Under the pieces are notes generated by a model, which was not told where the DNA came from, ran no database searches, and saw only the letters and a program-made list of their open reading frames with translations. Positions 2,997 through 56,310 of a stretch of DNA of 64,000 nt are shown here, in pieces (position 1 is the stretch's first letter; each line of letters begins with the position of its first letter). The position numbers and the translations under genes are program-made. This DNA comes from an uncultured Clostridium sp. (GTDB taxonomy: Bacteria > Bacillota > Clostridia > TANB77 > CAG-508): contig CAOKPI010000002.1 in the NCBI GenBank assembly GCA_948470605.1, positions 19,015-83,014 on the forward strand. The letters run 5' to 3'.

Positions 2997-3040
2997 AATG
3001 TCAAGTAATATACAATTATACTTGACATTCTTTTATATTT
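2997..3040 (+). terminator. rho-independent terminator downstream of alr
   Basis: An 11-bp perfect stem aatgtcaagta/tacttgacatt is followed by a T-rich tract. Confidence 0.7.
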
Positions 3041-3072
3041 TGAGACAATTAAGAGCTGTCCCTCTTGTCTCA
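3041..3072. repeat. solo TGAGACAA..TTGTCTCA hairpin of the CTGTCCC orientation; its last three nt are the SPFH stop codon on the minus strand
   Basis: The sequence is tgagacaattaagagctgtccctcttgtctca followed by TTTTTT. It belongs to the same family as the elements at 28981-29100 and 38295-38416. Confidence 0.6.
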
Positions 3073-3972
3073 TTTTTTATCATCTTTTACAATTTCCTTC
3101 ATGGCACCTAGTGAACTTAAAGCATTGGTTGCTTCAAAAGGAATAAATACTTTATTAGCATCGCCTTTAGCCACTTCTTCTAAAGCCTCTAAAGATTTTA
3201 GTTGAACTAGTTTATCATTTGGGTCTGCCTTTTTCATAGCATCATAAACCATTTGAATTTCTTTTGCTTTTGCATCAGCCACTTCTCTAATTGCCTGTGC
3301 TTCACCGGCAGCTCTTCTAATTCTAGCTTCTTTATCTGCTTCAGCCTCTAAAATAGCAGCTTGTTTTTTACCTTCAGCAATGGTAATTGCTGATTGTCTT
3401 TGGGCTTCTGATTCTAGAATCAAAGCTCTTTTATTTCTTTCGGCATTCATTTCTTTTTCCATGGCATCTCTAATATCAGCAGGTGGCGTAATATCTTTAA
3501 TTTCTACTCGGTCGATTTTACAACCCCATCGATCGGTTGCCTCATCAAGAACCACTCTTAATTGATTATTAATACCATCTCTTGAACTGAAAGTTTCATC
3601 TAAATCCATTTTACCGATAATATCACGAATCGTTGTAATTGCTAAGTATTCAATACCTTTCTTTAAACTTTGAATTTCATACACTGCTTTCGCAGGGTCT
3701 GTTATTTGGTAGAATACAACCGTATCAATTGTAATGGTAACATTATCTTTTGTAATAACGCCTTGAGGTGGAATGTCCATCGTTTGTTGTTTTAAACTAA
3801 CCACACTTCTTACATGGTCAAAAAATGGAATGATAATGGTAAGACCAGCATCTGCTACTTTGTAGAACTTACCTAACCTTTCAATAATATACACCTCAGA
3901 TTGTTTAACGATTTTGATAGACATAAATGCTATTACTAGAATAATAACAAGTAAAACTAATAAAAACCACAT
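3070..3972 (-). CDS. SPFH/band-7 (stomatin/prohibitin-like, QmcA/YqfA-type) membrane protein
   Basis: It has an N-terminal TM helix followed by an SPFH domain (IIERLGKFYKVADAGLTIIIPF..DTVVFYQITDPAKAVYEI). The C-terminal coiled coil is Ala/Glu/Lys-rich. Confidence 0.85.
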   Translation of the reverse strand: MWFLLVLLVIILVIAFMSIKIVKQSEVYIIERLGKFYKVADAGLTIIIPFFDHVRSVVSLKQQTMDIPPQGVITKDNVTITIDTVVFYQITDPAKAVYEIQSLKKGIEYLAITTIRDIIGKMDLDETFSSRDGINNQLRVVLDEATDRWGCKIDRVEIKDITPPADIRDAMEKEMNAERNKRALILESEAQRQSAITIAEGKKQAAILEAEADKEARIRRAAGEAQAIREVADAKAKEIQMVYDAMKKADPNDKLVQLKSLEALEEVAKGDANKVFIPFEATNALSSLGAMKEIVKDDKK

Positions 3973-4776: not shown

Positions 4777-5784
4777 ATGAAAGAATTTAATTATCAAGAT
4801 TATTTAAAGTATCAAAAATTGAAAGCTAAAGAAAACAATAGTCTGTATGAATTACGAGAACCAGAGGAGAAATATCATGTACATCAACCACATGATAAAA
4901 TTTTTAAAACAGTGCTAAATGAAAAAAGGGAAATGGTGGAATTAATAAATAGAGTATTAGAGTTGAAAACAAAATTAAAGGAAGAAGAGATAGAAATATT
5001 TAATAATGAACATATCAGTTATATGTTTGAAGGTAGTGTATCAGATATCGTTTATAAAATGAAGGAAAAAGAAATATTTTTTTTAATTGAACATCAACAA
5101 AAAATTGACTATGATATGCCAAAAAGAATTTTAGAGTATGAAGTAGAAATTATAAAACAAGCAACGAGAGGAAAGAAGATGACAAAACAAGAACATAAGT
5201 TACCAAGAGTCATACCAATTGTTATCTATACTGGTAGTGGGAAATGGAATGTCGAGAAATATATAGAAGAGTGTCAAGAGATATTATCAAAGGCAGATTG
5301 CGTGAGGTTAGGAGAGTATTATGTATTAGATGTTAATAATTATACAAAGGAAGAATTGGAGAAAGATAATTTGTTTTTGTCTAAAATGTTGTTGCTAGAA
5401 AAATTAAAAACAGGAGAGGAAATATATCATATGTTAAATACTGCGATTGAGAAGGAAAATGACGAGAGAAATAAAGCTATTTTAAAAAGAATTATTGCTT
5501 TTATTTTAGATGAAAAGTTAAGTTTAGAAAATAGAGAAAAATTATTAAAAAAATTAGAAGGAGGAAAGAAAGATATGGTTTTAGAAGTGATTAGGAAAGA
5601 AAATGAAAGATTAATAAAAAAAGGAAAAGTAGAAGGGAAAATAGAAGGAGAAATAGAAATTTTAAAACGAGCGGTTAAAAATATGTTACAATTTGGAGAA
5701 GACGAAGAAAAAATTATGAAATATATCGGTATCAACAAAGAAGAATTAGGAAGAATAAAAAGAATGTTAAAAACAATTATTTGA
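4777..5784 (+). CDS. Rpn-family recombination-promoting nuclease/putative transposase (YhgA-like, PD-(D/E)XK)
   Basis: It has N-terminal HDKIFKTVL and FFLIEHQQKIDYDMPKRILEY motifs characteristic of Rpn/YhgA proteins. The C-terminus is a charged coiled coil. Confidence 0.7.
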   Translation: MKEFNYQDYLKYQKLKAKENNSLYELREPEEKYHVHQPHDKIFKTVLNEKREMVELINRVLELKTKLKEEEIEIFNNEHISYMFEGSVSDIVYKMKEKEIFFLIEHQQKIDYDMPKRILEYEVEIIKQATRGKKMTKQEHKLPRVIPIVIYTGSGKWNVEKYIEECQEILSKADCVRLGEYYVLDVNNYTKEELEKDNLFLSKMLLLEKLKTGEEIYHMLNTAIEKENDERNKAILKRIIAFILDEKLSLENREKLLKKLEGGKKDMVLEVIRKENERLIKKGKVEGKIEGEIEILKRAVKNMLQFGEDEEKIMKYIGINKEELGRIKRMLKTII

Positions 5785-6795: not shown

Positions 6796-7371
6796 ATGTT
6801 ATGTGATAATTGTGGAAAAAGAGAAGCAAATGTGAGATATTCAGAAAATATAAACGGAAGAAGAAAAGAATTAAATTTATGCGAAGAATGTAGTAAAAAA
6901 TTAGGAATTAACCATATGGATTTTAATATGCCAATTGATTTTTCTAGTTTTTTTGGGGAATTTTTAGAGGATTTTGCAACACCAGAATTCATGCCATTGC
7001 TTCATGAGATAAAAGCATTAAAATGTAATCAATGTGGTTCAACTTTTGAAGATATAGCTAATACAGGAAAATTAGGATGTGGTAATTGTTATGATGTGTT
7101 TGAAGAAAGATTAGACCCAATTATTCGAAGAATACAAGGAGCCAATCGACATGTGGGAAGAGTTGGAAAAGTGATTGATAGTAAAATAGAGGAAAAAATG
7201 GCGAAAGAAACGAATGTAAAAGAGGAAAAGGCAAACCAGCCAAAGGAAAGTAAGAAAGAAAAACAGTTAGAAAAATTACAAGAACAGCTGAAACAAGTGA
7301 TTAAAGAGGAAAAATATGAAGAGGCAGCTAAAATAAGGGATGAAATTAAAAAAATAGAAAAAGAAAATTAA
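6796..7371 (+). CDS. mcsA: McsA, activator of the protein-arginine kinase McsB (zinc-finger/UVR domain)
   Basis: CxxC pairs occur at CDNCGK, CEEC, CNQCG and CGNC. The C-terminal UVR motif is EEAAKIRDEIKKIE. A GGAGG RBS is present. Confidence 0.85.
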   Translation: MLCDNCGKREANVRYSENINGRRKELNLCEECSKKLGINHMDFNMPIDFSSFFGEFLEDFATPEFMPLLHEIKALKCNQCGSTFEDIANTGKLGCGNCYDVFEERLDPIIRRIQGANRHVGRVGKVIDSKIEEKMAKETNVKEEKANQPKESKKEKQLEKLQEQLKQVIKEEKYEEAAKIRDEIKKIEKEN

Positions 7372-18578: not shown

Positions 18579-18652
18579 GATTCATCTCCTAAAAATTGAT
18601 AGTAGTATTATACCTAGATTTCTGATAATAGTCAATGTCAATTAACAGGTTT

Positions 18653-19043
18653 GTGACAAGAGGGGCGCCCTTTTTTGTCACACAAAATAATTCAAAAAAG
18701 GTTATTATGATTTTTTATTTGCAACTCCCAACATCACACAGTCTGTAAATTTTTAACAGACTGTAGTTCGTCGGTCCCCACGAATTGTTGCTTCATAAAA
18801 AATATAATAACCTTTGTGAGAAATAAAGGAAATGTGACAAGAGGGGAGTCCTTTTTTGTCACATAAAATAATTCAAAAAAGGTTATTATGATTTTTTATT
18901 TGCAACTCCCAACATCACACAGTCTGTAAATTTTTAACAGACTGTAGTTCGTTGGTCCCCGCGAATTGTTGCTTCATAAAAAATATAATAACCTTTGTGA
19001 GAAATAAAAGAAATGTGACAAAAAAGGGCGCCCCTCTTGTCAC
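18653..19043. repeat. tandem array of 2.15 copies of a 181-bp unit; each unit begins with a GTGACAA..GGGCGCCC..TTGTCAC hairpin and contains the ~110-bp core repeat
   Basis: Units start at 18653, 18834 and 19015, with about 95% identity between them. The terminal hairpin is inverted. The core matches the repeats at 25786-26007 (reverse complement) and 28104-28222. Confidence 0.8.
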
Positions 19044-19141
19044 AACCTATTAATTATGCACTTGCAAAAAAGACGAACTTATGATATAAAGGAAACAGAG
19101 AAAAGATAGAAAGAAAAACATCAGGAAAATGAGGTGAAAAA

Positions 19142-22008: not shown

Positions 22009-22911
22009 ATGCAAGGAATTATCATAGAAAATATCGCTAATTTATATCGAGTTTCCCCACTTACTCCCGGAACCAGTGGGGACAAAATCTATGAAGCAAC
22101 GGCGAGAGGAAAATTCAAAAAAGAAGAAATCTCACCTGTTGTAGGGGACTTTGTTGAATTTGAAATCACAGATGAGGTAAACAAAAAGGCAGTTATCAAC
22201 CAAATATTAGATAGAAAAGTGTATGTAAAAAGACCTAAACTTGCTAATATTACACAAATTGTATTTGTTGTTTCTAGCAAAGACCCTAAGCCAGATTTAT
22301 TGATGTTAGATAAACAATTAGCATTTGCTGAGTTCTTGGGAATTAAATCATTAATTGTATTAAATAAAACAGATTTAGATAGTAAAAAAGAATTTAAAGC
22401 AATTCGAGAAATATATGAGAACATAGGCTATGATGTTATAGAAACAGAAGCAAAAAATCAAAAGGGAATTGACCAACTAAAACATAAATTAAAAAATAAT
22501 GTCAACGCATTTTCTGGCAATTCAGGAGTGGGAAAATCTACTTTGATAAATGGTATTTTTGGACAAGATATGACATTAGAGGGAGAAATTAGTCAAAGGA
22601 ATAAAAGAGGAAAAAATACAACAACAGCTATTAAGTTATATCAAATAGATGATAATACTTATATTGCTGATACACCTGGATTTTCAACATTTTCTATGGA
22701 AGAAATTAAAAGGAAAGAATTAGCCAATTACTTTGTGGAATTTAAAAGTAAGATTGCAAATTGTGAGTTTGTGGGTTGTACTCATATTAAAGAGGAGAAT
22801 TGTGGTATCAAAAAAGCAATACAAAATGGAGAAATTTATCCAGCAAGATATGAAAGATTTTGTAAAATACAACAACAATTAAAAGAAAGAGAGGAAAAAA
22901 AGAAATGGTAG
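22009..22911 (+). CDS. rsgA: ribosome small-subunit-dependent GTPase A
   Basis: It has the circularly permuted GTPase motifs VLNKTDL, GNSGVGKSTLIN and DTPGF, and the zinc finger CEFVGCTHIKEENC. Codons 16-24 (nt 22054-22080) are a GC-rich hairpin homologous to the MITE terminal inverted repeats. Confidence 0.9.
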   Translation: MQGIIIENIANLYRVSPLTPGTSGDKIYEATARGKFKKEEISPVVGDFVEFEITDEVNKKAVINQILDRKVYVKRPKLANITQIVFVVSSKDPKPDLLMLDKQLAFAEFLGIKSLIVLNKTDLDSKKEFKAIREIYENIGYDVIETEAKNQKGIDQLKHKLKNNVNAFSGNSGVGKSTLINGIFGQDMTLEGEISQRNKRGKNTTTAIKLYQIDDNTYIADTPGFSTFSMEEIKRKELANYFVEFKSKIANCEFVGCTHIKEENCGIKKAIQNGEIYPARYERFCKIQQQLKEREEKKKW

Positions 22912-24840: not shown

Positions 24841-25100
24841 ATTACAATTTTAAGTTTCGACTTTTTGCAAGTGAGGGTGGTCATATATCATTTTTGCAAC
24901 ACTGCGTAAGCGACCAGCTAACGCATACTGCCACTGTAATAAGCAAGCTTTAACAGTGGACAGCAAAACGAGCGAAACGAGTGCGATTGGAGCAACGTAC
25001 AGACTAGTATATTTTATTTTGGAAGTTGCGACACACAAAGTGTAAAAAAATGATATATGACCACCCTCACTTGCAAAAAGTCGAAACTTGAAATTACAAT
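24841..25100. mobile_element. 260-bp non-coding element with 55-bp near-perfect terminal inverted repeats and a GC-rich ~150-bp core, abutting the nth stop codon
   Basis: 24841-24895 is the reverse complement of 25046-25100 with 2-3 mismatches. The core GC content is well above the local background. No credible ORF is present: the 115-aa ORF at 24850-25197 is a palindrome artefact. Confidence 0.6.
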
Positions 25101-25735
25101 TATTTTTTAGCTTGATAAAACTTGCAAAGTTGATTGACAACACAAGTATCACATTTTGGCTTTCGTGCGCTACAAGTATTTCTTCCATGCCATACAAAAA
25201 TATGATTGATATCTTTTAAATATTCTTTTGGGAAAATTTTTAATAAATCCTGTTCTACCTTTTCAGGTTGTTTTTCTTTGGATAAACCAATTAGATTTGC
25301 TATTCTTTTTGCGTGCGTATCTACTGCAATTCCTTCTGCTATCCCAAACACTTCCAATAAAATAACATTGGCACTTTTTCTTCCAACACCAGCTAAACTG
25401 GTTAATTCATCCATCGTATGAGGAACTTGACCATCAAAATTTTCTAGAACTTGTTTGGCACATAATTTGATGTTTTTCGCTTTGTTTTTATAAAATCCAC
25501 AGGGATGGATGAGTTGCTCTAATTCATGAATGTCAATGTCTGCAAAGTCTTGAATGGTTTGACAACGTGAGAAGAGAGCAGGTGTTGTTAGGTTGACTCT
25601 TTCATCTGTACATTGGGCAGAAAGCATGACGGCAACGACTAATTCGAAAGGCGTTTTGAAATCTAGACTACAAGTGGCATCTGGGTATCTTTCTTTTAAT
25701 TGCTTAATTAAAGTAATGGCATCTTGTTTTTTCAT
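25100..25735 (-). CDS. nth: endonuclease III
   Basis: It has the HhH-GPD motif LTSLAGVGRKSANVIL and the 4Fe-4S cluster C-x6-C-x2-C-x5-C at the C-terminus (CSARKPKCDTCVVNQLC). Confidence 0.9.
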   Translation of the reverse strand: MKKQDAITLIKQLKERYPDATCSLDFKTPFELVVAVMLSAQCTDERVNLTTPALFSRCQTIQDFADIDIHELEQLIHPCGFYKNKAKNIKLCAKQVLENFDGQVPHTMDELTSLAGVGRKSANVILLEVFGIAEGIAVDTHAKRIANLIGLSKEKQPEKVEQDLLKIFPKEYLKDINHIFVWHGRNTCSARKPKCDTCVVNQLCKFYQAKK

Positions 25736-25785
25736 AACATCATCTCCTCGTATGTATTTTACAAAATAAAAGAGAATTCTTCAAT

Positions 25786-26007
25786 GTCCCCACTGGTTCC
25801 GGGTTTAAATGGGGATGCAATTGTAATTATATTTTAAATTAAAAGTTTATTCTATTTTTTATACAGTAACAATTCGGGGGGACCAGCAAGCGTACAGTCT
25901 GTTAAAGATTTACAGACTGTGCGATGCTGGGAGTTACAAATAAAAACTAGAATAAACTTTTTTATAAAAATTAATGCATCCCATTTAAACCCGGAACCAG
26001 TGGGGAC
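25786..26007. mobile_element. 222-bp MITE-like element with nested inverted repeats: an outer ~32-bp repeat GTCCCCACTGGTTCCGGGTTTAAATGGGGATG and an inner ~15-bp repeat, surrounding the conserved ~110-bp core in reverse orientation
   Basis: 25786-25820 is the reverse complement of 25973-26007. The core at 25861-25975 matches the reverse complement of 18706-18810. There is no ORF. Confidence 0.75.
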
Positions 26008-26087
26008 ATTTTCTAATTCTACATAAAGAGGAACAAATAAAGAGAAAAAATAATATAATATACAAAAACAAGGGAGGTAATAATCGT

Positions 26088-28071: not shown

Positions 28072-28103
28072 CTAATTAATAATTTTATAAAAGTTTATTA
28101 TAT

Positions 28104-28222
28104 TTTTATTTGTAACTCCCAACTGCATAACAGACTGTAAACAAAATTTCTAAAAATTTTGTACAGTCTATAATTTGTCGGTCCCCCCGAATTGTTACTA
28201 CATAAAAATATAATAAATTTTA
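28104..28222 (+). repeat. solo copy of the ~110-bp core repeat (variant with an extended central hairpin)
   Basis: The sequence is TTTATTTGTAACTCCCAAC..ACAGACTGT..ACAGTCT..GTCGGTCCCCCCGAATTGTTACTACATAAAAATATAATAA. Confidence 0.7.
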
Positions 28223-28364
28223 CAAAAAATATTACAAGTAATAAGATGAAAGGTTGGGGTATAAATTAAGAGGTTAAATTTTAATCCCAGCTTTTTGGAT
28301 TTTATGCTTTTTTATCATTAAAATGTATCTTAATGGATTGATACAAAAAACAAGGAGGAAAATT

Positions 28365-28970: not shown

Positions 28971-28980
28971 AAAGAAAAAT

Positions 28981-29100
28981 GAGACAAGAGGGACAGATTT
29001 CTTTTGTCTCATAAATTTGGATAGAAAAATGTCGAATAAAGAAAATGATAAAAAACGACAAAAAATGTGAGACAAAAGAAACCTGTCCCTATTGTCTCAA
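28981..29100. repeat. 120-bp MITE-like element made of two 32-nt TGAGACAA..GGGACAG../..CTGTCCC..TTGTCTCA hairpins in mutually inverted orientation around a conserved 56-nt spacer, directly upstream of clpX
   Basis: Hairpin A lies at 28981-29012 and hairpin B at 29069-29100. The copy at 38295-38416 has about 90% similarity. Confidence 0.75.
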
Positions 29101-32014: not shown

Positions 32015-32710
32015 ATGTATAATATATTAGTTGTAGATGATGATAAAGAAATTGTAGGAGCCATTGAAATTTACTTAAAAAAAGAAGGATATAACATATT
32101 AAAAGCATACAATGGAAAGCAAGCACTAAAAGTCATACAAGAAAATGAAATTCATCTTGTTATATTAGATATCATGATGCCAGAAAAAGATGGAATTGAA
32201 ACATTAGAAGAAATCAGAAAAGATAAAAGCATACCAGTTATTTTGTTATCTGCCAAATCAGAAGATTATGACAAAATAGGAGGATTGAATTCAGGAGCAG
32301 ATGATTATATTACGAAACCATTTAATCCATTAGAATTAATTGCCAGAGTCAATTCCCATTTAAGGAGATATGTCAGTTTAGGTTCGCTAGAAAAAAGAGA
32401 TAGTAGCAAAATTTATCAAACTGGTGAATTAATCATCAATGATGAAACTAAAATCGTAACAGTAGATGGAAAAGAAGTTAAATTGACAGCAACCGAATTT
32501 AATATTTTAAAATTTTTATTGGAAAACAAAGGCAAAGTATATTCGATACCAGAAATTTATGAAAATGTGTGGAAAGAAGAAGGTTTTGGAGCAGAAAATA
32601 TTATTGCAGTTCATATTAGACATATTCGAGAAAAGATAGAAATTAATCCCAAAGACCCGAAATATCTAAAGGTGATTTGGGGAGTTGGCTATAAAATAGA
32701 AAATATTTAG
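32015..32710 (+). CDS. OmpR/PhoB-family response regulator
   Basis: The receiver domain has VVDDD.. and LDIMMP. The winged-helix output domain has LTATEFNILKFLLENKGKVYS and VHIRHIREKIE. Confidence 0.9.
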   Translation: MYNILVVDDDKEIVGAIEIYLKKEGYNILKAYNGKQALKVIQENEIHLVILDIMMPEKDGIETLEEIRKDKSIPVILLSAKSEDYDKIGGLNSGADDYITKPFNPLELIARVNSHLRRYVSLGSLEKRDSSKIYQTGELIINDETKIVTVDGKEVKLTATEFNILKFLLENKGKVYSIPEIYENVWKEEGFGAENIIAVHIRHIREKIEINPKDPKYLKVIWGVGYKIENI

Positions 32711-32713
32711 GAA

Positions 32714-32746
32714 ATGTGGGACATTATCTACGTCCCCATGTCCCAA
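32714..32746. repeat. REP-like hairpin TGGGACAT-TATCTACGTCCCC-ATGTCCCA between the response regulator and the kinase
   Basis: It contains the reverse complement of GGGGACGTAGATA, the same core as the elements at 51877-51904 and 53414-53448. Confidence 0.65.
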
Positions 32747-38294: not shown

Positions 38295-38416
38295 ATGAGA
38301 CAATGGGGACAGGTTTGAATTGTCTCATAAATTAAGTAGAAAAATGTCAAAATAAGAAGAAGACACAAAAAGTGACAAAAAAAGTGAGACAATTGAAACC
38401 TGTCCCTATTGTCTCA
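38295..38416. repeat. second full copy of the 120-bp double-hairpin TGAGACAA element, between thyA and folA
   Basis: Hairpin A lies at 38295-38327 and hairpin B at 38385-38416. The spacer is about 85% identical to the copy at 28981-29100. Confidence 0.75.
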
Positions 38417-51300: not shown

Positions 51301-51894
51301 CAAATTGATGCACAAGCAACTATTAATACTATGCAATTACGAGAGTTAGATGAGCAGATGAGTTCACAAATGTTAATGGAAGAAGGAGTAAGAAATGAGA
51401 AACCAAAATTTGTGGATGGGCAAAAAATAAAATATATAGGAATTATTACTTCGATTAAAAAGAAATATACAAAAAATAATAAGATTATGGCTTTTGTTAC
51501 GATAGAAGATTTATATGGTACAGCTGAAATCATTGTATTTGAGAATGCTTACTTAACAGCAGGTAAGAGTTTAGTGGAAGAAAATATTGTTGTGGTCCAT
51601 GGTCGTTTGAGCATTCGAGAAGATGATACGACTACTATTATTGCTAATGAATTAAAAGATTTTGGCAATCAAAAACAGAAGATTTTTACCCTTGATATTA
51701 CAAATGCTAATGACGAACAAAAGGAAAAGTTAAGAGGGGCTTTGCGATATTTTAATGGGGATAGAAATAATATGAATGTGCAAATTAGGATAGAAGAAGA
51801 ACTAAAACCATGTGGACAGATTTATTGGACAGAGCAGATTCAAGGAGTGTTTGAAGATATTTTGGGAAAAGAAAATGTGGACATGGGGACGTAG
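48313..51894 (+). CDS. dnaE: DNA polymerase III alpha subunit (DnaE-type)
   Basis: The PHP domain is HLHIHSEFSLLDGA. The polymerase core motifs are GPGRGSGAGS and PDFDVDF. An OB-fold C-terminus is present. It is 1193 aa. The last 5 codons and the stop lie inside a REP-like hairpin. Confidence 0.95.
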   Translation: MSKFVHLHIHSEFSLLDGANRIKDLPVRAKELGMEAIAITDHGAMYGAIDFYKACKKEGIKPIIGCEVYVAPRSRFDKEPNIDNRYNHLILLAKNQQGYQNLSKLVSIGFVDGYYYKPRIDIEVLEKYHEGLICLSACLAGSVNQSLLKGDNEKAEEIALWHKKVFGEDYYIEIQNNGIKEQVLANQKLIALARKLEIPLVATNDAHYLKREDAYNHEVLLCIQTGKRMSDMDRMRFETDELYVKSPEEMIEYFKSFPDAIENTVKIAEKCNVEFEFGHTILPNYDVPEEFPTHYDYFKKLCDDGIKNRYGENPSQEILDRMEYELGVIQKMGYVDYFLIVWDFIHYAKTHGIPVGPGRGSGAGSIIAYAIEITDIDPMKYGLLFERFLNPERISMPDFDVDFCYEHRQDVIDYVSEKYGHDHVSQIITFGTMAAKMVIRDVARVLDVAYAEADSLAKMIPNELHITIQKALEQNKELKERYETDETVKKVLDIAMALEGMPRQASTHACGVVITKEPVDTYVPLYVRDDQISTQYIMTTLEELGLLKMDFLGLRTLTVIQDTIDLVKENRGIDVEFDKEMADPKVYKLWQEGKSCGIFQFESQGMTNFMKELKPDCLEDLIAGVSLYRPGPMDQIPRYVKGKLNPGHNEYTHPRLEPILNVTYGCMVYQEQVMQIVRDLAGYSLGRADLVRRAMGKKKLDVMAKEREVFIHGQVDDEGNVVVPGCVRNGIDEASANKIFDEMAEFAKYAFNKSHAACYAVIAYRTAYLKAYYPAEFMAATLNSFLGNLDKIPQYIDECKLLGIEILKPEINKSDAKFTTEYDGEFGESDPKLPISKKQSTTELLSQSKAKIRFGLGSIKNVGTVPVNSVVKERRENGPYKSFTDFCERIADEAVNKKCIESLIKAGAFDEFEQTRSTLLASFEGIIDSIQSSKKRGLAGQVSMFDLGSEQEKEEMNEVKYKFYEQEEMSNKELLSIEKEMLGIYISGHPLEKLRSQIDAQATINTMQLRELDEQMSSQMLMEEGVRNEKPKFVDGQKIKYIGIITSIKKKYTKNNKIMAFVTIEDLYGTAEIIVFENAYLTAGKSLVEENIVVVHGRLSIREDDTTTIIANELKDFGNQKQKIFTLDITNANDEQKEKLRGALRYFNGDRNNMNVQIRIEEELKPCGQIYWTEQIQGVFEDILGKENVDMGT

Positions 51895-51904
51895 ATGATG
51901 TCCC
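51877..51904. repeat. REP-like hairpin GTGGACATGGGGACGTAGATGATGTCCC overlapping the dnaE stop
   Basis: It carries the GGGGACGTAGAT core in plus orientation and is inverted relative to the copy at 53414-53448. Confidence 0.65.
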
Positions 51905-52011
51905 TATTTGTGCCTTTTTCTATAAAAAATTATGAGAAATAGTGTTGAGGTGAAATTTTTTGTTAATGAAATAAGTAATAAATGATAAGAATTTTGAAAG
52001 AGGAAACGATT

Positions 52012-52350
52012 ATGGAAAAAATTGAAATGTTAGAAGGAATTTTGAATAGTTATCCATATCCTATTGTTTTTGTAGATAATGATTATAGGATTAGATTTAT
52101 GAATAAAAATGCACAATACCATTATCGCAAAAAGGGAAAAAATCTAATAGGAAAGAGCATATTTGATTGTCATAATGAAAAATCTATTGGAAAAATAAAA
52201 AACACTTATGAAGAAATTAAAAAAACTGAAAAAGATGTATTTATATTTGTAAATTCTAGAAATCAAAGAGTTTATATGCAAGGTGTCAAAAATCAAAAAG
52301 GCGAATGGATAGGATTTATAGAAAGATTTGAATTAAACTTGCAAATGTAA
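52012..52350 (+). CDS. small PAS-domain protein
   Basis: The sequence YPIVFVDNDYRIRFMNKNAQ..GKSIFDCH is a PAS-fold signature. It is 113 aa. Confidence 0.5.
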   Translation: MEKIEMLEGILNSYPYPIVFVDNDYRIRFMNKNAQYHYRKKGKNLIGKSIFDCHNEKSIGKIKNTYEEIKKTEKDVFIFVNSRNQRVYMQGVKNQKGEWIGFIERFELNLQM

Positions 52351-52574: not shown

Positions 52575-53414
52575 TTGTTTTATTCAAATAATTTTAATCA
52601 TGAACTAAATCCAATCATTAAAAAACAAAAAGAGGAGGTGAATGCCATACCGAGAGTAGCAAGAAAAAATCATATAAGTCAATATTTTCATATTGTTGTT
52701 AAGGGAATAAATGCAGAATATATATTTAGAAAAAAAGAGTATATGGAAAAATATAAGAATTTATTGAAAAAGAATGCAAAGAATCATCAAATCAATATAC
52801 TTGCTTACTGTATTATGAATAATCATGCCCATATATTATTATATACAAAAGAAAAAACTGAAATGGCTAGTTTTATGCAAAAAACCAATACTAGCTATGC
52901 TAAATATTATAATTTTTATGAAGATAGAGAGGGATATGTTTTTAAAGGACGATATTATACACAAAATATTTTATCATTAAAACAATTATATAATTGTTTG
53001 GTTTATATCCATAAAAATCCAATAAAGGCAAATTTAGTAACCAAAATGGAAGATTATCCGTTTTCAAGTTATCACGAATTCTTTAAAGATAAAGAGATAA
53101 TAGATGAACAAAGTATAAAATTGTTAGAATTAAAATTAGATAATTATTATAATGATTTAATAAAAATACATAGAATGGAAGATATTACAGATATATTTGA
53201 TATAAAAGAATACATAGATGCCCAACAAATCTTAAGAGAATATGAAAATAATTACAAGCAACCAATTAAAAAATTGAAGGAACAAAACGAAATTTTAGAA
53301 AAGATAATTGTTGATTTAAATGAAAAGGCAGGAATGCCAATTAGAAAGATAGCAGAAAAGATAAGTGTTAATAAAAACAAAGTGAATAAAATTTTAAAAG
53401 AAAAAAGAAAATAG
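52575..53414 (+). CDS. Y1 HUH transposase-family protein (IS200/RAYT-like REP-associated tyrosine transposase) with a C-terminal HTH-like extension
   Basis: The HUH motif is NNHAHILL. The catalytic Tyr context is FKGRYYTQNI. The N-terminal FHIVVKG is typical of the Y1_Tnp fold. The gene is flanked by inverted GGGGACGTA[G/C]AT hairpins. Confidence 0.65.
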   Translation: MFYSNNFNHELNPIIKKQKEEVNAIPRVARKNHISQYFHIVVKGINAEYIFRKKEYMEKYKNLLKKNAKNHQINILAYCIMNNHAHILLYTKEKTEMASFMQKTNTSYAKYYNFYEDREGYVFKGRYYTQNILSLKQLYNCLVYIHKNPIKANLVTKMEDYPFSSYHEFFKDKEIIDEQSIKLLELKLDNYYNDLIKIHRMEDITDIFDIKEYIDAQQILREYENNYKQPIKKLKEQNEILEKIIVDLNEKAGMPIRKIAEKISVNKNKVNKILKEKRK

Positions 53415-53448
53415 GGGACAAAATGTACGTCCCCATGTCCTCCATGTC
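53414..53448. repeat. REP-like hairpin GGGGACAAAATGTACGTCCCC plus ATGTCC repeats between the transposase stop and the mgtA stop
   Basis: The reverse-complement core is GGGGACGTACAT, inverted relative to the copy at 51877-51904. Confidence 0.65.
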
Positions 53449-56109
53449 CTAAATCCATTCACCATATTTTTTCATATAAATCTTTTTAGCAAAAATGGCC
53501 ACAAAGCAATAAAGAAGAGTAATTGCAAAAATCAAGAAAATATATTTTGTAGCAATTGGTACAAATCCAAGTAAATTTCCTAAACCAGTAAAAGGAACCA
53601 AAATTCCAATAATAATTAAAGAAATAGAGGAAATATAAACAGCTTTATGGGCATTACTTTGTACAAATGGCAATTTAGCGGTACGAATGATATGCATGCC
53701 TACTAAATTGGAGGTGATGCTATAACTAAACCAAATGGTTTGGAAAGTAGCGACATCTCTTACTTGGAAAATGAACCAAAGAGAGGCAAATACAAGCATA
53801 TCAAAGGCAGAGCTAAGTGGTCCCATAAAAAACATAAATTCTTTTAGACTCTTGATGGAAAATGTTTTTGGCTTCTGTAAAGATTCTTTGTCTACATGGT
53901 CAAAAGGTAAAGTCAATTGTCCAAAATCATATAATAAACCTTCTACTAATAATTGAATAGGTGTTTCTGGTAAAAAAGGTAGCAAAGCACTAGCAATGAC
54001 GACAGAAACGACTTCTCCAAAGTTGAAACTAGTTGCTAATTTAATATATTTCATAAGATTCACATAGGTACGTCTTCCTTCTGTGACACCATCTAGTAAT
54101 ACATTTAAGTCTTTTTCTAATAAGATAATATCAGCAGCTTCTTTGGCAATATCAACTGCGGTATCAACAGAAATTCCAACATCGGAATTGGTAAGGGAAG
54201 GGCTATCATTAATGCCATCTCCCATATAGCCTACGACATTTCCGGATTCTCTTAAAAGCCTTACAATTCTAGCTTTTTGAATTGGAGAAAGTTTGGCGAA
54301 TATATTGGTTTTCTTCAATAATCGTAAAACAGCAACATCGGTTAATTTATCCAGTTTACTTCCTAATACAATATTTTTAGAGTTAATACCGACTTTATTA
54401 CAAATACATCTTGTAACTTCTGCATTATCTCCTGTTAAAACCATGACACGAATGCCAGCACGATTTAATTTTTCGATGGACTCTTTGGCACTTTCCTTTG
54501 GAGGGTCTAAAAATCCAATAAATCCTAATAATATCATATTTTTTTCGTCAGCCACTGAAAAGTTTTCGATGTTAGTAATATCATTTTTTTGACATACAGC
54601 TACGACTCTTAGTCCATCTTCATTTAATTTCTTGCTAATTTGTCTGATATTTTCTTTGATTTCTTTCGTGATAGGAGAAACTTTTCCTTTATAATCAATC
54701 ATGGTACAAATGCTTAGAATTTCTTCCACAGCACCTTTGGTGATTAATTGCTTTTTTGTACCATCACTTACGACAACAGATAAACGCCTACGAGAAAAGT
54801 CAAAAGGAATTTCATCTATTTTTTTATATTTTTCTGAAATCTCTTTCATGTTATTTTCAAAAGCTCTTTGGATAACAGCTTCATCAATATTTCCTTTTAA
54901 TCCAGTTTGAAAGTAGGAATTTAAAAAGGCATGTTTTAAAACTCTAGTATCTTCTTCTCCTTGAACATCTAGATATTTTTCTAATACAATTTTATCCTCT
55001 GTTAAGGTTCCTGTTTTATCGGTACATAAGATGTTCATAGCACCAAAATTCTGAATGGAATCTAGCTTTTTCACAATGGTTTTTTTCTTAGACATTCGGA
55101 TAGCACCTTTGGACAAGCTAGAGGACAAAATAACAGGTAATAGGAGAGGGGTAATCCCAATGGCGATTGCCACAGCAAAAGTAAATGCTGTAATGATATC
55201 ATGTTTCCAAGCGTTTAGTAAAAAGACGATAGGAATCATGATTAACATGAAACGAATTAACAATCTACTAATGCTTTCAATTCCTTTTTGGAAAGCGGTT
55301 TTAGGTTTTCCAAGAGTTAGGGTGTGAGCTACTTTACCAAAGTAAGTAGAGTCAGCTGTTTTGATGACAATTCCTTTGGCACTTCCTGAAATAACATTAG
55401 TTCCCATGAAACAAATGGTGTCTAAGTCTGCAATACTATCTAAATTTTCTATCGATGTTTCGGTTTCCACAAGCTTTTTAACACTATCGGATTCACCAGT
55501 TAAAGAGGATTGTCCAACATATAAATCTTTTGCCTCAATTACTCTTAAGTCAGCTGGAATCATACTACCAGCAGAAAGAAATACGACATCTCCTAAGGTG
55601 ATTTCACGAATGGGAATTTCAATTTTTTCTCCATTACGAAGCACAGTGGTTGTGGTTGCTACCAGCTGTTTTAATTCTTCTGCTGCTTTATTAGAACGAT
55701 ATTCCTCGAAAAAGTCTAATAAAGTGCTTGCTGTGACTAAGATAGCAATTACAATAATATTGGCATAACTTGGCGTGGGTGGCAAATAAATATCGGTATA
55801 AATTAAAATAGCTACAATCCCAAGTAAAATACAATTAAAAGGGGTAAATAGGCTTTCTAAAAAATAGTGATACCACTTTTTGGGTTTGGCTTGCTTAATT
55901 TCATTCAATCCTAAATTACGAAGCCTTTCTTCTGCTTCACTAGAGGAAAGTCCTTCTTCTTTTACTTTGTATTTTTTAATAAAATCTTCTTTGGGCAATG
56001 TGGCTTCTTGCCCATATAATTTAGTAACATTTACTTCGTCTTTGGTTGTATTGTTTGACAAATTAATCATCTCCATTTTTCTTAGTTCTAGGAAAGTGCA
56101 TTTATGCAC
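53449..56109 (-). CDS. mgtA: magnesium-translocating P-type ATPase
   Basis: The phosphorylation site is CTDKTGTLT. Other motifs are MLTGD and GDGINDSPSL. Ten TM segments are present. The start is GTG at 56109 or ATG at 56076. Confidence 0.9.
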   Translation of the reverse strand: MHKCTFLELRKMEMINLSNNTTKDEVNVTKLYGQEATLPKEDFIKKYKVKEEGLSSSEAEERLRNLGLNEIKQAKPKKWYHYFLESLFTPFNCILLGIVAILIYTDIYLPPTPSYANIIVIAILVTASTLLDFFEEYRSNKAAEELKQLVATTTTVLRNGEKIEIPIREITLGDVVFLSAGSMIPADLRVIEAKDLYVGQSSLTGESDSVKKLVETETSIENLDSIADLDTICFMGTNVISGSAKGIVIKTADSTYFGKVAHTLTLGKPKTAFQKGIESISRLLIRFMLIMIPIVFLLNAWKHDIITAFTFAVAIAIGITPLLLPVILSSSLSKGAIRMSKKKTIVKKLDSIQNFGAMNILCTDKTGTLTEDKIVLEKYLDVQGEEDTRVLKHAFLNSYFQTGLKGNIDEAVIQRAFENNMKEISEKYKKIDEIPFDFSRRRLSVVVSDGTKKQLITKGAVEEILSICTMIDYKGKVSPITKEIKENIRQISKKLNEDGLRVVAVCQKNDITNIENFSVADEKNMILLGFIGFLDPPKESAKESIEKLNRAGIRVMVLTGDNAEVTRCICNKVGINSKNIVLGSKLDKLTDVAVLRLLKKTNIFAKLSPIQKARIVRLLRESGNVVGYMGDGINDSPSLTNSDVGISVDTAVDIAKEAADIILLEKDLNVLLDGVTEGRRTYVNLMKYIKLATSFNFGEVVSVVIASALLPFLPETPIQLLVEGLLYDFGQLTLPFDHVDKESLQKPKTFSIKSLKEFMFFMGPLSSAFDMLVFASLWFIFQVRDVATFQTIWFSYSITSNLVGMHIIRTAKLPFVQSNAHKAVYISSISLIIIGILVPFTGLGNLLGFVPIATKYIFLIFAITLLYCFVAIFAKKIYMKKYGEWI

Positions 56110-56252: not shown

Positions 56253-56284
56253 TGAGACAATGGGGACAGGTATTAGTTGTCTCA
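56253..56284. repeat. solo TGAGACAATGGGGACAGG..TTGTCTCA hairpin (A orientation) 27 nt upstream of the aminopeptidase start
   Basis: It is near-identical to hairpin A at 38295-38327. Confidence 0.7.
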
Positions 56285-56310
56285 TAAATTGAGAAGAAAA
56301 GAGAGGTATT

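Follow-up and report, generated by a model that had tools for sequence, protein, structure and literature searches.

A REP-like hairpin unit read in frame within rsgA of an uncultured gut Clostridium

In a stretch of 64,000 nt from an uncultured Clostridium sp. (contig CAOKPI010000002.1 of assembly GCA_948470605.1; in the following this whole stretch is called the window), the gene rsgA, which encodes the ribosome small-subunit-dependent GTPase A, carries near its start a short hairpin that also forms the two ends of an intergenic palindromic element of 222 nt (25786-26007). We consider it probable, at roughly 75%, that codons 16-25 of rsgA constitute one complete unit of a high-copy and mostly intergenic family resembling the repetitive extragenic palindromic (REP) sequences, and that this unit was inserted into the gene and is translated in frame. 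Palindromic repeats that are read in frame within genes are already known from Rickettsia and other bacteria.

The unit in rsgA and its repeat family

Codons 16-25 of rsgA read TCC CCA CTT ACT CCC GGA ACC AGT GGG GAC and contain an 18-mer, CCCGGAACCAGTGGGGAC, that occurs exactly three times in the window (22066-22083 and 25990-26007 on the forward strand and 25786-25803 on the reverse strand). The chance expectation is 0.01 matches, none of 100 shuffles gives three, and no fourth site was found within the 64 kb when up to 3 mismatches were allowed. The initial annotation of this region took the 222-nt element to be a miniature inverted-repeat transposable element (MITE) and proposed that the segment in rsgA consists of its two termini, the last 18 nt being equal to the right terminus and the first 8 nt (TCCCCACT) to the start of the left one (25787-25794). 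Both identities are exact, and together with the similarity described next they confirm that the segment and the ends of the element belong to one repeat family. The similarity is more extensive than 18 plus 8 nt: positions 22054-22084 are collinear with the whole terminal unit of the element (placed at 25785-25815 by the repeat finder) at 28 of 31 bases (TCCCCAcTTActCCCGGAACCAGTGGGGACA versus TCCCCAtTTAaaCCCGGAACCAGTGGGGACA), and a solo intergenic unit from a relative (L027; handles with L denote loci of relatives, those with P RsgA homologs) matches the rsgA copy at 30 of 31. A profile of 150 units recovers the rsgA copy at 22052-22084 (nhmmer, E 1.3e-10). The stem, earlier given as 7 bp, comprises 8 bp (22054-22061 with 22075-22082) and is predicted to fold at -12.5 kcal/mol as RNA, no better than composition-matched shuffles (z -1.4).

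Given the peptide and the codon usage of this genome, the probability of exactly these codons is 7e-8; the unit is 63% GC, as against a genomic GC content at third codon positions (GC3) of 0.225. The exact RsgA protein of the window is present on eight contigs, and all four that were read, from four separate metagenome assemblies, have identical DNA at the unit, which is therefore not an assembly artefact. Structures of the RsgA/YjeQ/YloQ group are homologs of the encoded protein (1U0L, 4e-54; 1T9H, 7e-51; also 6ZHL), and the inserted segment aligns with the loop LDESEDSDKV of YloQ. In an AF2 model (mean pLDDT 81) residues 18-27 form a coil that connects two strands of the OB domain (12-17 and 28-32), in line with the earlier placement of the in-frame segment in a variable loop of that domain; on this model the insert occupies a surface loop that is compatible with the RsgA fold.

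The family to which the unit belongs, here called family A, consists of 31-nt hairpins in which a stem of 7 bp encloses a loop of 17 nt (GTCCCCA-17 nt-TGGGGAC), and the consensus of 150 aligned copies, all with the exact 18-mer, is (a)(t)GTCCCCA-TTTAA(A/T)-CCCGGAACCAGTGGGGAC(a/g)(t). A scan with the 18-mer, in which every species was represented by one genome, returned at least 114 stretches among the matches listed, nearly all in about ten related low-GC metagenome-assembled genomes (MAGs) that are labelled uncultured Clostridium sp. or Clostridia bacterium and of which several come from mouse gut. Five of the matches listed lie in unrelated genomes and are attributable to chance. Altogether more than 150 copies were found in related low-GC Clostridia MAGs of about ten species. 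The left arm, which lay outside the search pattern, is conserved in about 95-99% of the 150 copies. The window's own species is absent from the scan matches listed, the best loci being 80-86% identical; the nhmmer profile finds 220 units across the loci collected from relatives and only three in the window.

Most units lie outside long open reading frames (ORFs). The majority are solo, others form inverted doublets with spacers of 10-250 nt (e.g. in L010, L012, L073, L081, L091, L099 and L110) or tandem arrays with a period of 31-40 nt. Such arrays were considered as clustered regularly interspaced short palindromic repeats (CRISPR) and rejected as such, given that these periods would leave 'spacers' of 0-9 nt. 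The CACTT variant found in the rsgA copy also occurs in solo intergenic units (L024, L027, L039, L075 and L120). For each of four reading frames out of six, at least 82% of the units are open, and for the frame used in rsgA (+1) this holds for 136 of 136. At gathering thresholds, Rfam has no match anywhere in the window. The 18-mer was not found in the viral contigs searched, nor was the 222-nt element matched in the plasmid collection searched; these viral and plasmid collections yielded no carrier for horizontal spread. Table 1 lists the features of the window that are central to what follows.

Table 1. Coordinates of rsgA, of the hairpin units and of the transposase gene in the window
Feature	Position	Strand	Details
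rsgA (ribosome small-subunit-dependent GTPase A), host gene	22009..22911	+	300 aa ORF; Pfam RsgA_N and RsgA_GTPase
Solo family-A 31-nt REP-like palindromic unit in rsgA	22053..22083	+	in frame as (V)SPLTPGTSGD, codons 16-25
Hairpin 5' arm in rsgA, TCCCCACT	22054..22061	+	RNA fold
Hairpin 3' arm in rsgA, AGTGGGGA	22075..22082	+	RNA fold
Family-A unit, left end of composite element	25786..25816	-	nhmmer E 3.9e-13
Palindromic core of 222-nt element, separate module	25817..25977	.	inverted matches elsewhere in window
Family-A unit, right end of composite element	25978..26007	+	one 5'-arm C missing; nhmmer E 7.2e-12
Family-D hairpin GGACATGGGGACGTAGATGATGTCCC, contains GTAG, left of PAS and RAYT-like pair	51879..51905	+	repeat finder
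RAYT-like Y1 (IS200-type) transposase gene, C-terminal HTH	52575..53414	+	Pfam Y1_Tnp 38.8 bits, cutoff 23
Family-D hairpin GGGGACAAAATGTACGTCCCCATGTCC, right of RAYT-like gene	53412..53450	+	repeat finder

Palindromic units in the RsgA loop and in other genes of relatives

RsgA was compared with 120 closer homologs (70-95% identical) and with outgroups at 64-74% identity from other gut metagenomes. A comparison of N-termini, which the initial annotation had suggested, shows that the residues are an insertion: all outgroup proteins have at this site an AT-rich turn of 5-8 residues (e.g. KTENGI, KVEDTI or KVQNKT), and the insert is likewise missing from the closer relatives P0063 (KSDK) and P0094 (KGNNNY) and from the empty sites of L005 and L006. 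A metagenome scan for further rsgA DNA recovered only relatives at 74% identity or less, all of them short-looped, which establishes the short loop as the ancestral state. Within the clade of the window the loop varies from 5 to 40 residues among the 120 homologs. Loops of the A type encode SPxxPGTSGD-like peptides, and loops of a B type encode CQKGPSPMA-like peptides that derive from a second unit (ATTGCCAAAAAGGnCnnCCCC..TGGCAAT, also built as 7 + 17 + 7), which is a dispersed intergenic repeat as well. Several loops combine units in tandem (P0007, P0065 and P0100) and others are chimeric, i.e. B-type arms surround an A-type loop in L194 and a B unit is followed by a partial A unit in L008. 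Judged by this comparison, the loop between strands beta1 and beta2 of RsgA is a hypervariable hot spot that has been colonised repeatedly by several repeat families.

The unit does not preserve the reading frame everywhere. In L125 (2950-3080) and L105 (about 5650-5780, reverse strand) the first 15 rsgA codons and the remainder of the gene lie in different frames across the unit. In both loci these first 15 codons run to a stop, the rest being called from an ATG at the 5' edge of the unit in L125 (ATGTCTCCA...) and from an ATG inside the unit in L105. N-terminally truncated calls account for 12 of the 120 homologs (P0016, P0021, P0024, P0025, P0027, P0031, P0050, P0059, P0067, P0073, P0074 and P0090), and among them are six diverged clusters of 286 aa with an intact downstream ORF. 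These variants may reflect a real loss of strand beta1 (i.e. an N-terminal truncation), recoding, or MAG errors at repeats, the latter being possible because tilS of L051 is likewise frameshifted between two units. The earlier proposal that the segment has been domesticated is not supported: no evidence of a function was found, the loop is hypervariable and the unit breaks the frame in some relatives. To call its host gene essential, as was done at the same time, is an overstatement: in both E. coli and B. subtilis, rsgA is important without being strictly essential.

Within the window rsgA is the sole gene that carries a hairpin unit, all other copies of the hairpin families being intergenic. 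A search for further in-frame occurrences, also suggested by the initial annotation, was carried out in the related MAGs with an ORF-spanning test and revealed units in two other genes. In four MAGs, tilS contains two tandem A units in frame (at about codons 60-85), which separate the SGGxDS motif from the remainder of the PP-loop domain; the identity of tilS follows from a family search in two MAGs (L047 and L024; TIGR02432 at 186-187 bits). In two further cases (L037, about 7200-7290, and L039, about 1900-2000) in-frame A units are read as NPEPVGT within a large protein, which looks GH94/cyclic-glucan-synthase-like by eye, without a family search; copy number and sequence of these units differ between the two MAGs. 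Separately, two tandem A units at 2144-2205 of L104 make up about the last 40 codons of an ORF for an ABC-type ATPase that is SufC-like in appearance; here the C-terminus seems to have been extended, or else replaced, by the repeat.

Transposase genes, composite elements and further palindromes

A putative source of mobility is found in the relatives. The loci collected with the 18-mer alone turned out to include genes for transposases that resemble the REP-associated tyrosine transposases (RAYTs), namely in L025, L047, L051, L060 and L086, and the RAYT-like protein of the window is 41-46% identical to these (local tblastn; 36-42% over the full alignment). The RAYT-like proteins exceed the Pfam cutoff for Y1_Tnp and have REP_Tyr_transpos as best NCBIfam match (66-75 bits), with the HUH (HAH) and YIHxNP tyrosine motifs being invariant; for the protein of the window the scores are 70.4 bits relative to a cutoff of 80, and 21 bits for IS200. 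A single-sequence search of the PDB with the RAYT-like protein gave no match. In three of the loci (L025, 1690-2900; L047, 3960-5160; L051, 2790-4000) the order is dnaB, an inverted A unit that is followed after about 120 nt by the RAYT-like gene and, in opposite orientation, tandem A units inside tilS, which to judge from the gene order is a REPtron layout. The dnaB-to-tilS layout is kept in L024 (1830-2520), where the transposase gene is degraded. In the window the RAYT-like gene adjoins a small gene with a PAS domain (51982-52350), and the pair is bracketed by inverted hairpins of another family, D. A search for family D as a dispersed family gave few copies; a third copy within the window (32709-32743) separates a response-regulator gene from the ORF that follows.

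The 222-nt element, which had been regarded as the parent of the segment in rsgA, proves to be a composite of two inverted A units around a separate palindromic core that is found elsewhere without these units. The core has inverted matches at 18686-18765 and 18867-18946 (80 nt, 81%) and at 28175-28208. It occurs as a module without A-type ends at 28077-28234, between tig and clpP, and at 18652-19045 a unit of 181 nt is tandemly duplicated (copies 97% identical, each bounded by the 31-nt hairpin TGTGACAAGAGGGGCGCCCTTTTTTGTCACA) with a core corresponding to the interior of the 222-nt element. For the whole element, with its inverted ends of 31 nt, the folding energy is -73 kcal/mol (z -15.7). 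The palindrome may extend into the flanking AT...AT, or these bases may represent a duplication of 2 bp, and no parent insertion sequence (IS) with such ends was seen.

The surrounding site (25700-26080, upstream of nth) is empty in L105, and the elements found there in the window, L007, L008 and L088 are all palindromic but differ from one another. This intergenic spot is, on the basis of these alignments, an insertion hot spot. No clean pair of empty and filled sites was obtained here: L105 is empty but its flanks are too diverged, and the other relatives carry other elements. A further palindromic element of 260 nt (24841-25100, or 24849-25091 in the comparison with L123; arms of 55 nt that are 95% complementary, AAGTTTCGACTTTTTGCAAGTGAGGGTGGTCATATATCATTTTT...) is a recent insertion polymorphism, because it is missing from L123, a relative with 94.8% nucleotide identity to the window over 5.8 kb, while L007 carries a member of the same family at the nth-proximal site.

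Apart from these elements, a third hairpin family (TGAGACAATGGGGACAGGTTTGAATTGTCTCA) is present at 3038-3078, 28980-29099, 38296-38416 and 56253-56286, often as inverted doublets in short intergenic gaps, the adjacent genes of which were taken as clpP-clpX and thyA-folA by reading their N-terminal sequences; it has the motif GGGGAC/GTCCCC in common with families A, B and D. The ORF at 4777-5784 has a match to PF04754 (E 9e-23), a domain of putative transposases of the YhgA type.

Competing explanations and comparison with known systems

The course of events that we favour can be outlined as follows. Family-A units most likely spread as single-stranded hairpins via a hairpin-guided transposition of the kind proposed for REPs and for their inverted doublets, the REPINs; it is this type of transposition that seems most likely because inverted units flank the gene for a RAYT-type Y1 (HUH) transposase in related genomes, and the movement as single strands is suggested by analogy to the REP/RAYT and IS200/IS605 systems. 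Short-patch gene conversion between copies possibly adds to the spread. The ancestor of the clade would have gained a unit at the tip of the beta1-beta2 hairpin in the OB domain of RsgA, at a turn that then had 5-8 residues. A unit of this family is free of stops in four of six frames and encodes a peptide rich in Pro, Gly, Ser and Thr, and because the site is a tolerant surface loop, the unit would simply have been translated (here as SPLTPGTSGD). Since then the rsgA copy would have been carried along as a passenger, presumably neutral for RsgA.

Several observations weigh against this interpretation. At the rsgA site no target-site duplication and no clean pair of empty and filled sites was resolved, and the ancestral turn can not be aligned base by base. 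The A units do not have the GTAG of classical REPs, which is present only in the family-D hairpin next to the RAYT-like gene of the window, and CGTC is found in 36 of 150 (with C before GTCC), T being present at that position in 99 of 150. The RAYT-like proteins stay below the equivalog cutoff of NCBIfam (80 bits) and their profile matches TnpArep (4ER8) weakly (E 0.031). In the window itself there are just three A units and the RAYT-like gene is flanked by family D instead; owing to these few units and to the different flanking family, a transposase specific for family A is not demonstrated in the genome of the window. Finally, the rsgA genes of the window, L088 and L105 share exactly the same 18-mer, yet in the rest of the gene their third codon positions are only 54-60% identical. 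A single old and neutral insertion alone can not explain this, so that re-templating or selection is needed in addition.

With regard to the latter point, about 62% of the conserved residues use the same codon among the three rsgA genes. Six rsgA copies have a single compensatory pair of changes over 12 stem positions (C:G to T:A, in L125, both changes being synonymous), versus 12 of 18 non-stem columns that vary (Fisher P = 0.011). The pattern becomes weaker when four additional rsgA copies are considered, among which there are one mismatch, three T.G pairs and an arm swap that is fully compensated. Both re-templating from genomic copies and selection on the hairpin could account for these data, which come from a small sample of related sequences. 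One may ask whether template switching or short-patch gene conversion from other genomic copies, rather than transposition, brought the unit in or keeps it near the consensus, with the rsgA loop acting as a recombination sink for swaps between units. This would explain that the 18-mer is the same in three species despite near-saturated synonymous sites elsewhere, that the variable hexamer of every rsgA copy has counterparts among genomic units (e.g. AATGAAA in L105 and in L073/L092), that the units of L194 and L008 are chimeric, and that L123 shows differences at 9 of the 30 sites in its rsgA unit, as against 6.5% elsewhere in the gene (P = 9e-5). Yet it leaves the first arrival at a site without homology unexplained, no donor could be tied to any recipient, and the decayed copies in L007, L123, L192 and L193 imply that homogenisation is not general; we consider this scenario unlikely as an alternative to insertion of a mobile unit.

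Selection at the level of DNA or RNA is the other option, the rsgA hairpin having been co-opted, for example, to bind the RAYT or to form, 45 nt into the ORF, a structure in the mRNA that tunes rsgA translation or stability. We regard this as improbable. The compensatory stem change mentioned above, the full pairing in L194 in spite of its different arms and the retention of rare GC-rich codons are what such a role predicts. Then again, the sample is small and phylogenetically non-independent, there is a C.A mismatch in L192 and there are T.G pairs in L191 and L193, many relatives miss the hairpin or have replaced it by a different unit, the predicted fold does not stand out from shuffles, and re-templating from genomic copies would conserve the stem equally well. 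Rather doubtful, too, is the broader notion that the stem is maintained at the nucleotide level (by selection or by continual re-templating) and that the RsgA loop and the tilS site are parts of a host-integrated REP/RAYT system of Clostridia that generates loop diversity, including N-terminally truncated RsgA whose translation starts at an ATG that lies within the unit or borders it on the 5' side.

The initial annotation favoured an excision footprint, in which both termini of the 222-nt element were joined and its interior was lost. We find this very improbable. The terminal matches that inspired it (TCCCCACT with the first bases on the left and the 18-mer on the right) are equally those of a single complete unit, with which the 30 nt in rsgA are collinear including the middle TTAnn; solo units are the commonest form among the copies listed, and the CACTT variant is shared with five of them. 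In addition, the 222-nt element is composite in itself, and transposases of the IS200/IS605 type (Y1) excise without leaving footprints. The reverse origin, i.e. that the repeat family or the termini derive from the rsgA segment, has nothing but the shared sequence to recommend it, as does coincidence or convergent coding. The segment is missing from outgroup rsgA genes, the ancestral sites being empty, more than 150 copies are spread over about ten species and the rsgA copy is slightly off-consensus, while the number of matches and the choice of codons far exceed chance (0.01 expected matches; codon probability 7e-8). Both possibilities are hardly credible.

With family A, abundant REP/REPIN-like repeats with a RAYT-type transposase extend to uncultured gut Clostridia, where REPs had not been tied to RAYTs before, and the units in rsgA and tilS provide a clear case, beyond Rickettsia and Proteobacteria, of selfish palindromes that are translated inside conserved translation-related genes. 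The rsgA loop amounts to a natural experiment on what a protein tolerates, given its lengths of 5-40 residues, the units of several repeat families that it carries, its chimeras and its apparent frameshifts. At a practical level the units are a hazard for annotation, in that they give rise to false start codons (ATGTCCCCA...), to gene calls that are split and to breaks in MAG contigs.

Among known systems, the bacterial interspersed mosaic elements (BIMEs) of E. coli are extragenic and built of GTAG REPs. The mosaic clusters of differing palindromic units in alternating orientation that are seen in L011, L108, L088 and the rsgA loops are similar to these. REP/REPIN-RAYT systems have been described in Pseudomonas and Escherichia (Bertels & Rainey 2011, PMC3116915; Bertels et al. 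2017, PMC5581495), and in Clostridia RAYTs of Group 1 were noted that were not tied to abundant REPs (PMC5581495). Family A shares with these systems the short imperfect palindrome, the high copy number, the mostly intergenic location, the frequent inverted doublets, a Y1/HUH transposase gene between inverted units (in L025, L047 and L051) and the confinement to a clade, with no copies found in the viral and plasmid collections searched. Unlike them, it has no GTAG, its stem measures 7 bp and its loop of 17 nt is as well conserved as that stem, its hosts are Clostridia with at least two RAYT-like genes per MAG, and tilS contains one flank of the REPtron.

Intragenic REPs of the GTAG/CGTC type, occurring as single, dimeric or clustered units, encode 10-80 residues in known genes, with no Firmicutes reported in the survey concerned (Di Nocera et al. 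2013, PMC3733652). As in that survey, family-A units encode residues inside known genes and several families occur in one genome; the 8-9 bp stems, the 4-5 nt loops and the CCA tail of CGTC REPs are not shared by family A, and the genes hit are rsgA, tilS and the one judged GH94-like by eye rather than genes for replication or repair. In functional terms the phenomenon is that described for these intragenic REPs and also for the Rickettsia palindromic elements (RPEs), which are in-frame inserts in protein-coding genes (PMC10969869, PMC3733652). In both cases a mobile palindromic repeat is translated in frame in conserved housekeeping proteins, at a surface loop, with insert-free homologs. A sequence relation is improbable and the phylum is another one, the family-A unit measures 31 nt (10 aa) compared with about 150 bp for RPE-1, and one and the same RsgA loop is colonised repeatedly by several families, sometimes out of frame. 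Given the differences in phylum, GC content and unit length, membership of family A in RPE-1 to RPE-10 is implausible; what we propose is that the Clostridia unit works like an RPE.

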